The position numbers and the translations under genes were made by a program. Under the pieces are notes generated by a model that was not told the DNA's origin, did not search any database, and saw only the letters and a list, made by a program, of their open reading frames with translations. 64,000 bases of DNA from Escherichia coli (GTDB taxonomy: Bacteria; Pseudomonadota; Gammaproteobacteria; Enterobacterales; Enterobacteriaceae): the NCBI RefSeq assembly GCF_003334335.1, contig NZ_QOWQ01000010.1. The stretch is one strand, 5' to 3'. Every line of letters begins with the position of its first letter. Within the stretch, counting starts at the first letter, position 1. This document shows, one piece after another, positions 24,226 to 30,052 of the stretch.

Positions 24226-24942
24226 TCACAAGTAGACTACGCTTATCACAGCTTTCCCATCAAGTTCGATTTTTTCTGAACCGCCTAAATCATTCGCGAT
24301 AGATGCGCTCACCTGAAGCGGTATAATGGCGTTCGTTACAGGAGTTGGGGTTGTTTCACCTGGTTTTACAAAGGTGTAATAATAGCTTTGATCGACTGCA
24401 AGCGGATAAGCGGTGAGCGTTTGCCATGCTCTTTTTTGCCCTGTTATGACGGCATCTGCACCTGCTATTGATACAGCTAACGTCTGGCTACCATTGCTGG
24501 CACTAATGTTGTTGCTATCAATTAACACGGCATAACTACCGATATTTTTATTATCTTTTGTTTTCCCTAAGCCGAATAAGCGCGTTGTCTGGCTAATATA
24601 ACCTCCGCCATTTAAGGTATATTTTACACCACTCTGACCCCCACTATCTTTTCCGGTGGTCATACTATCCATTCGTGTATCACGAGCGGTAATCGCAATG
24701 CCGGTAGCGGATTCGCAAGTTATAGTCATATTAATATTACGTGTTCCAATCTGTGTGTAGTGCTGCGTTGAAAGTCTATTGACTGAATGACTACCGAAGT
24801 TAACAACTCCGCCGTTGCTTAGTATTGGAGTACAAGCTGCAGCTTCCAGAGTCACCTTAACGTCAATTGATACTCTATCAGCGGCTTGCGCTGACATGGC
24901 AAAAAAGGCACTTCCGGCAATCAGTAATTTTACATTGTTCAT
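24226..24942 (-). CDS. yhcF: fimbrial-like protein YhcF (secreted, GltF/YhcF family)
   Basis: 238-aa ORF with signal peptide (MNNVKLLIAGSAFFAMSAQA) and a C-terminal ...VVYL tail resembling that of GltF. Confidence 0.7.
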   Translation of the reverse strand: MNNVKLLIAGSAFFAMSAQAADRVSIDVKVTLEAAACTPILSNGGVVNFGSHSVNRLSTQHYTQIGTRNINMTITCESATGIAITARDTRMDSMTTGKDSGGQSGVKYTLNGGGYISQTTRLFGLGKTKDNKNIGSYAVLIDSNNISASNGSQTLAVSIAGADAVITGQKRAWQTLTAYPLAVDQSYYYTFVKPGETTPTPVTNAIIPLQVSASIANDLGGSEKIELDGKAVISVVYL

Positions 24943-25490
24943 TTTGCCTCCACCAGGACCGTCAGATTGCCTGTAATATCTGTCATGTCGGTTAGTTCCC
25001 CTTCATCCTTAAAAGCTGGAGCCATTGTCAGTGTGAGGCTAACGCTTTTACCGCTATCAATTACCACTTCTTGACCATTTTGCATAAACACCAGCCAATT
25101 ATTGGGGGAAGTACTAATTGATGCTGTTCCTGTGCTGCCCGGATTGTCATTTTTGCCACTGGCTAACGCCAGGTCGAGATTGTTACTACCTGAAAATGCA
25201 TCGCTGGCGATCAGATTTAATGAACCATTCGGGCCAAATCCAAATCCGTTGTTGGAAATATTAGCGGTATTCAACTGAACACGAATATGAGCGTCCTGAT
25301 CGCATTGCATTACCAGCGTGATTGTTCTGTCTGCTAATTGTGTTGTTTTACCCCGGTCAACTTGGCGCATGGCAGCACTTCGTTTGCCATAGTCGATATT
25401 TTGTATGCTACTGGAGATATTACACTCTGCCTGAGCGGCCATGGCGAAGTTCAGCAGCAGGCATCCTGTTATTATCCGTTTCATTGGCAC
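24939..25490 (-). CDS. yhcE: fimbrial-like protein (YhcE-like), apparently intact
   Basis: 183-aa ORF with signal peptide (MPMKRIITGCLLLNFAMAAQA); overlaps the yhcF start by 4 nt and the usher stop by 10 nt. Confidence 0.55.
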   Translation of the reverse strand: MPMKRIITGCLLLNFAMAAQAECNISSSIQNIDYGKRSAAMRQVDRGKTTQLADRTITLVMQCDQDAHIRVQLNTANISNNGFGFGPNGSLNLIASDAFSGSNNLDLALASGKNDNPGSTGTASISTSPNNWLVFMQNGQEVVIDSGKSVSLTLTMAPAFKDEGELTDMTDITGNLTVLVEAK

Positions 25491-27862
25491 TCTCCTGTTG
25501 CTGTCTCATAGAACACATCTTTTGGTGCATCTTCTGGGAATGTAAGGTGAATACGGCATGATTGCTGCTCATCTTTTATATCTAGCACCATGTCCGGTTT
25601 GATGTTATTGAGGAATACAACACCGTCATCCACTGATGTTGTCAGATAGTTGCCTTCACTATCTTCAATCGCAACGCCTCTGGGCAGTTTTTTGCCGTCG
25701 GAAAGTGTGATACTGAGTAATGCACGGCGTTGTGTTATCGCACTGAATCCGACTTTCCCTACTGCACCACGGCCTTGTTTGATCATTTTTGTGCCGTTAC
25801 CGATATCGACATTTTTTGGCAAGCTGGCGGTATCGATCTCAACTCCTGATGTTCGCCACGGCTGGATTGATGGAATGACGGCATTACCCCGAAAATCTGT
25901 CCATACTGGGCCTGCCTGAGATGTAATTCTGACACCTGCAATATTGTTATCCATTTTTGCGATGGCGAAAGTGTCATTGATAGTCCACGGTGAAAAGGTC
26001 ACTCCCTGATCATGTACGGCAATACCACCTGACATCGTACCGTTGTAAGTACGGCTATCACTGCCGCTTGCTCCTGCGGCAAGGCTGACTTGGGTGTAAT
26101 GGAGATTGGAACTGATACTGCCGTTCAAGCTCGTTTCACGTTCGTCGTGATCTCGTTCAGCATTCACATAGTAGGACATCTCATCTGAGACGACTCCCAT
26201 GACACCAGTACCATAGTGGGTTTTATGATCGTCATGGCGAGTATACAGTGTGGCGGTGTTTGATCTGCCAAATGGAATACTGATGTTGACGTAGAACAGA
26301 TCACCATCGTCTTCATTATTTTCTGAAGCACTAAGTTGATGCTGCCAGTTGACGGAAACCGTGGCGTGTTTGAACGCTTTGTTCCAGTTAATATTAAGGT
26401 TGCTTGAGTCATTGTCACCGTCGTAACTATATGTTTTATAGCCACTGATGTTGAAACCACCCAGAATGGAGTTAGACCAGTTTAAACCAAGCGCATAAGT
26501 GCTTTTAGTCGGATCGGTATAATCATCATCAATCGCTTCAGACAGTTCGCGATAATGGCGATCAGATCGAGTGAGGCTGGTTGTTAGCCCAAGTGAAAAT
26601 GGGAGATTGTAGTTCGCGTCAAGACGATATTTCTGTCCTTGCAGTGAGTCTTTCGTATCCTGCGATGTACTAATTTGGCTGCTCACTGTTAAATCGGGCA
26701 GGGGAACCAGACTCGACCGGATTGATGCCGCCTGATAATTTTCTGCTACGATAACGCCGCCGTTCATTGCACTCCAGCGTGTCAGATTCCATCCGCTCGA
26801 TGCACTAATTACCCAAGGTGATTCGTCATAGTCATCGTCTACCCGCCCTATCGCGAAGCGATAACCCTGGAAGCTTTCTACATGCTGATTAAACAGGGTG
26901 GAGGGAACAATATAGTTGTGCGAACTACCGTCTGTTTCGACAACGGTGACATTAAGATCACTATTACCATTGCGAACAGGTACATCAGGGATAGTGAATG
27001 CGCCCGCAGGAACCAGAATGGAATGAATTAAAACTCCTTGTTGACGAATCTCGACACGAGCCTGAGAGGTGTTGGCTATACCAGTAACTTGCACACCACT
27101 GCCGCTGGTTTGCAATGCGTTGTCCGGTGCGATTTCGATACCGTAAATACTGGCTCCTTCCAACACGCTATTATTGAGGTTAACTTCACCTGCTCGCATG
27201 AGTGTTTTAAGATCTGTAAAGGTACGTTGAAGGTAGGTTGACGAGTTCTGGTTACTGAATGTGCCATTTGTTTGTGTAAGGAACTGATGGCTGCGTAACA
27301 TCCAGTCATTAATATTAATCCCGCCTTCAAGTGCAGCCTGGGAGTAGTCCGAACTCCCATTAGAAAATTCTGCACGGCTGCTCATCAGAGAGTAGTTTAG
27401 CAGCGCAGCTGTTCCACCAGTTGCTGCGTTTGTGAGATCCAACCCTATGGGAATGATCGCCTGTGGTGAAACGATAATATCTAACGCTTCCTGGTTAGGT
27501 AATGGTGTGATTGTGGTACCCGGGTAGGACAATATATAGTCGTAACAGCCATTTTTTTCTTCAGAAGGAATTTTTAAACCGGCTTGTTGCAGAAATGCCT
27601 GATCAAGACAAATGTCGCCATTTTCATCAAAGCGCGTAGCAATGTTGCCTTTTTTTTCGCCATTTACTGATACTATCAGTGAATATTCACCTGGCAAAAA
27701 ACGGGCTGAACGGGAAAAATAATGCGATATATTAGGATCTACACCTAGTGATTTTAATGTTTCCCGATCAAAATCAACAGCGGCAATCTCTATACCATCT
27801 GCATTGGCTGGGGGAGAAAAGGCAAAACCAATGGTGTAGGCCAGTAACGTTTTTTTTAACAT
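25481..27862 (-). CDS. yhcD: outer-membrane fimbrial usher YhcD
   Basis: About 793-aa product from ATG 27862 (MLKKTLLAYTIGFAFSPPANA signal peptide); the track ORF uses a TTG at 27880. Confidence 0.85.
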   Translation of the reverse strand: MLKKTLLAYTIGFAFSPPANADGIEIAAVDFDRETLKSLGVDPNISHYFSRSARFLPGEYSLIVSVNGEKKGNIATRFDENGDICLDQAFLQQAGLKIPSEEKNGCYDYILSYPGTTITPLPNQEALDIIVSPQAIIPIGLDLTNAATGGTAALLNYSLMSSRAEFSNGSSDYSQAALEGGININDWMLRSHQFLTQTNGTFSNQNSSTYLQRTFTDLKTLMRAGEVNLNNSVLEGASIYGIEIAPDNALQTSGSGVQVTGIANTSQARVEIRQQGVLIHSILVPAGAFTIPDVPVRNGNSDLNVTVVETDGSSHNYIVPSTLFNQHVESFQGYRFAIGRVDDDYDESPWVISASSGWNLTRWSAMNGGVIVAENYQAASIRSSLVPLPDLTVSSQISTSQDTKDSLQGQKYRLDANYNLPFSLGLTTSLTRSDRHYRELSEAIDDDYTDPTKSTYALGLNWSNSILGGFNISGYKTYSYDGDNDSSNLNINWNKAFKHATVSVNWQHQLSASENNEDDGDLFYVNISIPFGRSNTATLYTRHDDHKTHYGTGVMGVVSDEMSYYVNAERDHDERETSLNGSISSNLHYTQVSLAAGASGSDSRTYNGTMSGGIAVHDQGVTFSPWTINDTFAIAKMDNNIAGVRITSQAGPVWTDFRGNAVIPSIQPWRTSGVEIDTASLPKNVDIGNGTKMIKQGRGAVGKVGFSAITQRRALLSITLSDGKKLPRGVAIEDSEGNYLTTSVDDGVVFLNNIKPDMVLDIKDEQQSCRIHLTFPEDAPKDVFYETATGECQ

Positions 27863-27882
27863 CCTTGTCGCTCCAGGCAAAG

Positions 27883-29493: not shown

Positions 29494-30012
29494 ATGAACA
29501 TATCCTTAATAACAAATTTATTTTTTAAAATAAAAAGCTGAAGCAGTATATATATCTGTTTGTGAATGTAAATAAATAACTCGTTCAGAAATAGCCAACT
29601 TGCTGGGATGTATTTATTTAATGAATTTTATAGTTACGATCATGTGAATAATAAGGTGCTGGTGAGGTGGTTTGTGGTGATAATTATTCATTACATGAAT
29701 GTTTGCGCTGAAAAATAGGAAAATATATAGATAATTAAGGATAATATATTGGTTTTTTATATTCATATTTTGTATATTAATATCGAGACAATTTACATGA
29801 AATGAAAAGACTGAATAGCTTGCAGAATCGGTATTGTCAGAGGTGTTAACAAGTAATTGAGACGGATTGTAAATGAGAAATTGCTTGATGTGCTTCACTC
29901 ATCAGACTTGGTGAACAAAGCACAATTTATTGAAAATTATCCCTATTATAGGAAAGGTCAAACGCTCATGCCGCATTTGCCAGAAAACAACGCGCACTTC
30001 GTCAGTAATTTG

Positions 30013-30037
30013 ATTCGCCAGACACAGTCTGGCGAAT
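30013..30037. repeat. CAGAC-N3-GTCTG palindrome unit (perfect 11-bp arms) 16 bp downstream of the gltD stop
   Basis: attcgccagac-aca-gtctggcgaat; arms identical to yhcG unit 3. Confidence 0.8.
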
Positions 30038-30052
30038 TCATTGTTACCTCGC

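Follow-up and report, generated by a model that had tools for sequence, protein, structure and literature searches.

A probable intact allele of the Yhc chaperone-usher fimbrial system in a close relative of Escherichia coli K-12

The Yhc system of Escherichia coli has been placed in the beta clade of chaperone-usher fimbriae, and the disruption of its yhcE gene in K-12 by the insertion sequence (IS) IS5 has been published (PMC3032704, PMC3559732). Complete, IS-free yhc loci were reported by Del Canto et al. in 2017 from 13 genomes of phylogroup A enterotoxigenic E. coli (ETEC), and the intact YhcE protein has hundreds of identical database entries (PMC5216030). In AdhesiomeR, Yhc counts among the standard adhesin clusters of E. 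coli (PMC11184843), and the other named beta fimbria, Stj of Salmonella enterica, belongs to the same usher clade (PMC9238391). Wurpel et al. considered two origins for Yhc, ancient remnant and recent gain, and left the choice undecided (PMC3559732, 2013). Here, we analyze the gltF-yhcA-yhcD-yhcE-yhcF locus in a 64,000-nucleotide stretch of E. coli contig NZ_QOWQ01000010.1 (the window, by which we mean this whole stretch). We consider it very probable that this locus is an intact, IS-free Yhc allele, that is, a beta-clade classical chaperone-usher fimbrial system, in a close relative of K-12. The locus itself, its beta class, its disruption by IS5 in K-12 and the intact copies in phylogroup A are already known.

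The Yhc locus and its IS5 target site

Five contiguous, uninterrupted minus-strand open reading frames occupy positions 24226-29493, between gltD (30053-31471) and yhcG (22914-24041), and the ATG of yhcE overlaps the stop codon of yhcD (Table 1). The whole 64-kb window is collinear with positions 3326669-3391867 of MG1655, from which it differs by 17 single-nucleotide polymorphisms (SNPs) and by one insertion/deletion, the missing IS5R. Three of the 17 SNPs fall within the cluster region, at 25713 (YhcD N717S), 28849 (silent, in gltF) and 29800 (in the spacer). Over the 18.8 kb compared around the cluster, the DNA is 99.97% identical to that of MG1655 (6 SNPs); GltF, YhcA and YhcF are identical to their K-12 counterparts and YhcD differs by N717S only. 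The Yhc locus of MG1655 (b3214-b3219) thus has the same genes, order, strand and chromosomal site as that of the window, but it carries IS5R (insH10) with a TTAG duplication in yhcE, where the window site is empty, and its record treats yhcE (b4569) as a pseudogene split by IS5R/insH10.

The alignment blocks between the window and K-12 overlap by exactly four bases, 25114-25117. At this site the window reads CATCAATTAGTACTTCC and K-12 reads CATCAATTAG-[IS5]-TTAGTACTTCC, which corresponds to one TTAG in the window and to TTAG-IS5R-TTAG, a target duplication, in K-12; the IS5 target is therefore unoccupied in the window. When IS5 and one TTAG were removed from K-12 in silico, the result was exactly the YhcE of the window, whereas K-12 yhcE as disrupted would encode 124 native residues followed by 35 IS5-encoded residues. 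A 6.1-kb query matched at 100% identity strains annotated with gltF, yhcA, yhcD, a 'YhcE family protein' and yhcF, and it matched K-12 strains in two pieces with an IS5 transposase between them. The pig isolate EC416 is among the 100%-identical matches, and the window represents a very close natural relative of K-12.

An earlier note on this DNA, made from the letters alone, had described five uninterrupted frames, an usher of about 793 amino acids and the absence of the K-12 IS5 insertion from yhcE. All three descriptions agree with our results, the frames lying, on the minus strand, within the positions that it had given, the usher measuring 793 amino acids from the annotated ATG and the empty site following from the K-12 alignment. 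Its figure of 183 amino acids for the yhcE-like gene needs a GTG start at 25490; the frame is intact, as claimed, and runs to 181 amino acids from the annotated ATG.

The ETEC loci of Del Canto et al. are likewise IS-free five-gene clusters of the beta class with a 717-bp yhcF, and we see no substantive difference between them and the window. The same paper describes strains with shorter yhcF variants or with a premature stop in yhcD, neither of which occurs in the window (PMC5216030).

Table 1 Coordinates of the Yhc locus and of related features (L-numbered loci are other contigs used for comparison)
Feature	Position	Strand	Description
gltF	28729-29493	-	254 amino acids; first gene; secreted DUF1120 pilin-like subunit, candidate major subunit
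yhcA	27883-28557	-	224 amino acids; PapD-like periplasmic chaperone
yhcD	25481-27862	-	outer-membrane usher; 793 amino acids from the annotated ATG, 799 from an upstream TTG
yhcE	24939-25484	-	intact 181-amino-acid pilin-fold protein without N-terminal extension; candidate first or tip subunit
yhcF	24226-24942	-	238 amino acids; last gene; second DUF1120 pilin-like subunit
Empty IS5 target site	25114-25117		single TTAG (minus-strand reading); K-12 comparison
gltD-gltF spacer	29494-30052	-	559 bp, AT-rich (GC 31.8%); presumed regulatory region
Variable segment	24171-30050		5880 bp, present or absent among E. coli genomes; comparison with GPEC1185
Hairpin	30011-30040	-	strong; just 3' of the gltD stop codon, within the variable segment; RNA fold
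Orthologous five-gene clusters	L003/L004 and L005-L007, positions ~5000-10265		gltD-nanQ site
Other beta-clade chaperones aligned	L004:5925-6596, L007:5926-6600, L013:3868-4569, L015:2425-3129, L016:3376-4098, L017:3812-4540
YhcE-family genes after usher	L013:7001-7573, L015:5683-6237, L016:6613-7200, L017:7001-8128

Chaperone, usher and subunits

Against NCBIfam PRK09918 (cut-off 183), YhcA reaches 320 bits, and against PRK15304 (cut-off 723), YhcD reaches 1272 bits, the latter match spanning residues 1-793; both therefore exceed the family cut-offs and bear out the intact chaperone-usher cluster that the earlier note had proposed. In a sequence search of the PDB, the nearest solved relatives of YhcA were Caf1M, DraB, CupB2, SafB and PapD, and YhcD aligns to PapC over residues 49-779 of 793 and also to FimD. 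In the other Escherichia loci, the YhcA orthologues carry PapD_N, and the YhcD orthologues carry PapC_N, Usher and PapC_C. The usher lies one residue (N717S) from K-12 YhcD, a named member of the beta clade, and GltF and YhcF are DUF1120 proteins, which places the system in that clade. As regards the classical chaperone-usher type, the locus has both a PapD-like chaperone and a full-length usher, and its chaperone lacks the Arg8/Lys112 pair of the cleft. The NCBIfam models PRK15301-15303, which we take to derive from the Salmonella Stj cluster, match YhcE, GltF and YhcF with E values of 1e-15 to 1e-30, but the scores of 55-107 bits fall far short of the equivalog cut-offs of 226-337, so orthology does not hold. 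Stj also occupies a different chromosomal site from Yhc.

GltF ends in ...ISVQYL, YhcF in ...ISVVYL and YhcE in ...VLVEAK. The V(V/Q)YL tail that the earlier note had ascribed to gltF and the two small secreted proteins is thus common to GltF and YhcF and missing from YhcE. Their supposed paralogy divides in the same way. GltF and YhcF, both DUF1120 proteins (E = 2.3e-47 for the YhcF match), are 30% identical (BLASTP, E = 6e-26), whereas YhcE gave no significant BLASTP match to YhcF (E = 0.017) or GltF (E = 0.23), has no Pfam similarity to either and is not a close paralogue. At the level of profiles, however, hhalign finds a relationship between the YhcE and GltF/YhcF families (96% probability, E = 1.5e-9) that spans the stretch bounded by the two conserved cysteines. 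YhcE is accordingly kin to GltF and YhcF only at the profile and fold level, and because of this link all three small proteins are pilin-fold subunits, that is, secreted proteins with the incomplete Ig-like fold of chaperone-usher pilins. A profile of YhcE relatives retrieved 103 proteins among 1.8 billion representatives, most of about 180-200 amino acids and some of about 375-395 amino acids with two matching stretches. A Pfam scan of 30 YhcE-family members returned no significant family, and PDB sequence searches with GltF and YhcE as queries returned no meaningful solved match.

The three subunits differ at their N-termini. In GltF and YhcF, 16-17 residues with alternating hydrophobic positions separate the inferred end of the signal peptide from the first cysteine, and IIGEY of GltF aligns with FKGEV of FimA. 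In YhcE and 29 relatives, a cysteine follows the end of the signal peptide, mostly within one or two residues, and there is no N-terminal extension. GltF and YhcF thus have both an N-terminal donor strand and a penultimate Tyr, and YhcE has neither, a combination expected only of a first or tip subunit. In donor-strand exchange, only the first subunit to be incorporated can lack a donor strand. Because YhcE combines the pilin fold with the absence of this strand, we infer from its sequence that it may be the tip or initiating subunit. A YhcE-family gene stands directly 3' of the usher gene in four other DUF1120 clusters on unrelated contigs, one of which (L017) encodes the 375-amino-acid, two-domain form. 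Further remote YhcE homologues lie on contigs too short for their gene context to be used. The donor-strand-less YhcE family, always 3' of the usher gene, is a lead for specialists. We also considered YhcE as a lipoprotein and rejected this, since the residue before the cysteine is Glu, Asp or Asn in most family members, unlike a lipobox. One of the remote DUF1120/YhcE clusters (L016:1-13554) adjoins an IS66-family element and several PA-IL-like lectin genes.

In FimC, Arg8 and Lys112 within the chaperone's cleft bind the C-terminal carboxylate of the subunit, and we placed Lys112 in the motif SRIKLYYRP by counting from FimC Leu103, Leu105 and Ile107 (PMC10673952). In our alignment (A8), FimC, SfmC, YraI and YadV of K-12 have Arg at position 8 and Lys at position 112, whereas YhcA has Val and Pro at these positions. 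At position 8, YhcA and six other beta-clade chaperones (Table 1) carry Val, Ile or Met; at position 112, all seven carry Pro, and the motif around Pro112 is RQ[DN][LI]P, with a conserved Arg four residues upstream of the Pro. The phmmer alignment of YhcA with Caf1M, which pairs CIKLLVRP of Caf1M with DLPVLIHP of YhcA, agrees independently on position 112. The Arg8/Lys112 carboxylate anchor is regarded as universal in PapD-like chaperones. Beta-clade chaperones that appear from alignment to lack the canonical pair are offered as a lead for specialists rather than as an established result.

Yhc resembles the Fim and Pap systems in its PapD-like chaperone, its full-length usher and its pilin-fold subunits, which bear a Cys pair, are extended at the N-terminus and have Tyr as the penultimate residue. 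It differs from them as follows. GltF and YhcF are DUF1120 proteins of 238-254 amino acids, and Fim pilin precursors are smaller (167-182 amino acids); Yhc has no lectin adhesin of the two-domain kind; its candidate tip subunit is a single pilin domain; and the chaperone has Val and Pro in place of Arg8 and Lys112. Fibre-type adhesins have single-domain capping or minor subunits, which we take to sit at the fibre tip; SafD and AggB are of this kind, and so are AfaD/DraD. SafD and AggB scored below the Fim and Pap pilin domains, and there is no sequence similarity.

Composition, alleles and distribution

The earlier note had judged the cluster and its upstream region AT-rich by eye and had suggested that its GC content and codon usage be compared with the window average. 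The GC content is 44.4% in the five-gene cluster, 51.7% in the rest of the window and 56.2% in gltD; it falls to 31.8% in the 559-bp gltD-gltF spacer and to 30.4% in the yhcA-gltF spacer. Among 65 genes mapped from the K-12 annotation, mean GC content at third codon positions (GC3) is 0.39 for the cluster genes vs 0.55 for the others, and the cluster genes fill five of the six lowest ranks in synonymous-codon typicality (Mann-Whitney test of cluster vs other genes: P = 2e-4 for GC and GC3, P = 5e-7 for codon typicality). The impression of AT-richness was thus correct, and the comparison sets the cluster clearly apart from its neighbours. Among the non-cluster genes, the most atypical codon usage belongs to yhcG (22914-24041), which encodes a PDDEXK/DUF1016 nuclease-like protein.

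The same five-gene order stands directly after gltD and before nanQ in assemblies whose YhcE NCBI labels E. ruysiae or E. albertii. Relative to the window, amino-acid identity is 59-86% for the cluster genes and 92-99% for the flanking genes, and synonymous divergence (dS) ranges from 0.6 to saturated in the cluster and from 0.26 to 0.51 in the flanks. Similarity is mosaic: gltF-yhcA-yhcD are nearer the albertii-type allele, and yhcE-yhcF are nearer the ruysiae-type allele. GC content is likewise about 30% in the gltD-gltF spacers of the other two Escherichia alleles. The Yhc site is shared across Escherichia, and its alleles are either much older than the species or have been exchanged. Fixed-site mosaic alleles across Escherichia are a lead for specialists rather than an established result. 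The gene yhcG is missing from the E. albertii-type locus and is missing, or possibly represented by a 68-amino-acid frame, in the E. ruysiae-type loci. Given its absence or reduction there and its codon usage, it may be a separate accessory insertion.

Among complete E. coli genomes, the usher gene occurs in 1136 of 5426 (21%), always at 99% identity or higher, and no divergent yhcD allele was found in the 5426 at blastn sensitivity. With a probe of 300 bp that spans the IS5 position, 783 of 1141 carriers give an unsplit match, and K-12 laboratory derivatives make up most of the split cases listed. In non-carriers, 183 bp separate gltD from yhcG. Strain GPEC1185, for example, has flanks that align to 21000-24170 and 30051-33100 and 53 unrelated bases in place of 24171-30050, and BL21(DE3) is reported to lack gltF (PMC6150544). 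Other strains carry IS1 or IS2 insertions at the locus. In strain 19SZHZ886Rt (L021), the whole cluster and the 5' end of yhcG have given way to two IS1 copies and a MobH relaxase fragment, and the IS1-bounded deletion leaves about 290 bp of the AT-rich spacer; in strain MSI001 (L022), ISKpn26 has taken the place of yhcE, yhcF and most of yhcD. These two IS-associated deletions are independent.

Horizontal acquisition, which the earlier note had favoured, stands only in part. The patchy distribution (21%) and the atypical codons fit it, but a simple island does not, since the same site is filled in other Escherichia and no mobility signature is present. Of the marks of a mobile genomic island, we find patchy distribution and atypical composition, and we find no integrase or transposase, tRNA or flanking repeats. 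More specifically, a tRNA scan of the 64-kb window gave no hit, no repeats bracket 24171-30050, and no integrase, transposase or other mobility frame at the cluster was found among the open reading frames of the window. The longest direct repeat (24257-24280 and 28760-28783) has its two copies in the 3' coding ends of yhcF and gltF, which are homologous. The shared site, the mosaic structure and alleles far older than their flanks point to allele exchange by homologous recombination over a mobile island.

Proposed assembly, regulation and alternative readings

If the locus is functional, GltF, YhcF and YhcE would leave the cytoplasm through Sec, YhcA would hold them by donor-strand complementation, and the subunits would be polymerised at YhcD via donor-strand exchange. 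YhcE, a strand acceptor only, would enter first and come to lie at the distal tip. GltF and YhcF, with their N-terminal extension and penultimate Tyr, would form the polymer, and GltF, encoded by the first gene, would be the likelier major subunit. Under laboratory conditions, H-NS probably keeps the operon silent. In K-12, this AT-rich DNA is bound by the protein: a chromatin immunoprecipitation compilation (PMC10294691 Table 1) marks H-NS binding at yhcA/yhcD of MG1655, and MG1655 RNA counts are low, at 38 for yhcA and 425 for yhcD, in a table in which well-expressed genes score thousands (PMC10294691). The earlier note had called such a cluster typical of H-NS-silenced cryptic operons; of the marks of such an operon, the locus has the AT-rich DNA. 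Where dS is finite, the ratio of nonsynonymous to synonymous divergence (dN/dS) between Escherichia alleles is 0.05-0.22, evidence of long-term purifying selection on every cluster gene, and maintained function is also supported by the uniformity of the 1136 E. coli copies.

Several points weigh against the view of this locus as a working classical fimbria. YhcA is without the Arg8/Lys112 subunit-anchoring pair of FimC and PapD, so the canonical model may not transfer unchanged. The tip role of YhcE is read from two things only, its missing N-terminal extension and its gene position, and the signal-peptide cleavage sites were read by eye. The H-NS binding comes from K-12 data, obtained on DNA 99.97% identical to that of the window, and promoter-like sites are not enriched over shuffled sequences (10 found vs 13.4 expected). 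No fibre, adhesion or expression has been published for any beta-clade system, and a yhc deletion in an ETEC strain left adherence to Caco-2 cells unchanged (PMC5216030). Finally, repeated IS hits and IS-mediated deletions at the locus are what would be expected of a dispensable region. It is conceivable, although we lean against it, that beta-clade systems build their fibres in a non-canonical way, with no Arg8/Lys112 anchor and with a single-domain, donor-strand-less YhcE-family initiator in place of a two-domain adhesin.

Taken to their end, some of these observations would make the cluster an evolutionary relic, its frames intact, never expressed or assembled and heading to loss. We regard this as unlikely. 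IS5 interrupts yhcE in K-12 lineages, other strains show IS1 or IS2 insertions and IS1- or ISKpn26-associated deletions, four fifths of complete E. coli genomes are without the cluster, K-12 RNA counts are low on H-NS-bound DNA, and the ETEC deletion had no Caco-2 adhesion phenotype. A relic, however, would not readily explain why all five frames are intact in the window, why the yhcE site is unsplit in 783 of 1141 carriers (with most of the split ones among those listed being K-12 laboratory derivatives), why dN/dS stays at 0.05-0.22 between alleles that are saturated or nearly so at synonymous sites, or why the same architecture is kept in unrelated loci. How the E. coli copy came to its site is a closer question. 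A recent recombination import into one phylogroup A lineage from an Escherichia-like donor, as opposed to an ancestral locus that was mostly lost, has in our estimate somewhat less than an even chance. It would account for 1136 E. coli copies that are all at least 99% identical with no divergent allele in the collection at blastn sensitivity, for the atypical composition, for published carriers that all belong to phylogroup A (PMC5216030) and for mosaic alleles with dS far above that of the flanks, a sign that alleles moved between lineages. Yet the same site is filled in two other Escherichia lineages, so presence between gltD and the nan genes may be ancestral to the genus; losses through IS-mediated deletion are directly seen; no donor allele near the E. 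coli one was found; and the phylogroup A strain BL21 is without the cluster. The data show that both of the processes between which Wurpel et al. left the choice undecided occur at Yhc, and they do not settle the E. coli case.

A further reading concerns gltF alone. A proposal of 1992, still repeated in metabolic papers, makes it the third gene of a gltBDF operon and a non-fimbrial regulator of nitrogen-controlled expression. The gene does lie downstream of gltD on the same strand, RegulonDB-derived lists group gltB, gltD and gltF, and the BL21 paper cites the proposal (PMC6150544). Nevertheless, GltF has a signal-like N-terminal sequence, a DUF1120 domain and a predicted pilin fold; YhcF is its paralogue, and chaperone and usher genes come next. 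In addition, 559 bp of 32%-GC DNA and a strong hairpin separate gltF from gltD, and about 79% of complete E. coli genomes, BL21 included, are without gltF and the cluster, yet all keep gltBD. To our knowledge, genetic studies that came after the proposal did not assign gltF a part in nitrogen regulation. On these grounds, we rejected GltF as a nitrogen regulator, a role we hold to be extremely improbable.

We return to the intact Yhc fimbrial allele as the reading that fits best. In natural strains like the source, the only classical chaperone-usher clade without a known fibre, receptor or structure is represented by a complete copy, which makes these strains the material of choice for expression and structural studies. 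If confirmed, a chaperone without Arg8/Lys112, a donor-strand-less YhcE and fixed-site mosaic alleles would matter to pilus-assembly specialists, and diverged mosaic alleles at a fixed Escherichia site bear on the 2013 question of ancient remnant vs recent acquisition.

The best sigma-70-like match upstream of the operon is TTTACA-16-TATACT at 29572-29545, 51 bp upstream of the gltF ATG. Matches to the terminator consensus were no more numerous than in shuffled sequences, and because the candidate hairpin after yhcF was not significant (z = -0.9), we claim no terminator there. Rfam searches over 23500-30500 gave no match at E <= 1. The hairpin at 30011-30040 is predicted to fold at -22.6 kcal/mol (z = -4.8); none of 200 shuffles was as stable, and no U-run comes after it. 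In genomes without the cluster, the 53 replacement bases form a different hairpin at the same place, followed by a U-rich stretch, and haplotypes with and without the cluster may have different 3' ends on their gltBD transcripts.

Within the 3' end of yhcA, positions 27895-27912 (minus strand) hold an exact copy of GGTAATAAATATGTCACT, the intragenic PhoB site at MG1655 3362763; intragenic PhoB sites such as this one have been judged transcriptionally inert (PMC10294691). At gathering thresholds, the only Rfam matches in the whole window are the greA leader (61737-61858, plus strand) and the small RNA ArcZ (39985-40092, minus strand), both of which lie outside the cluster and are expected at these K-12 positions.

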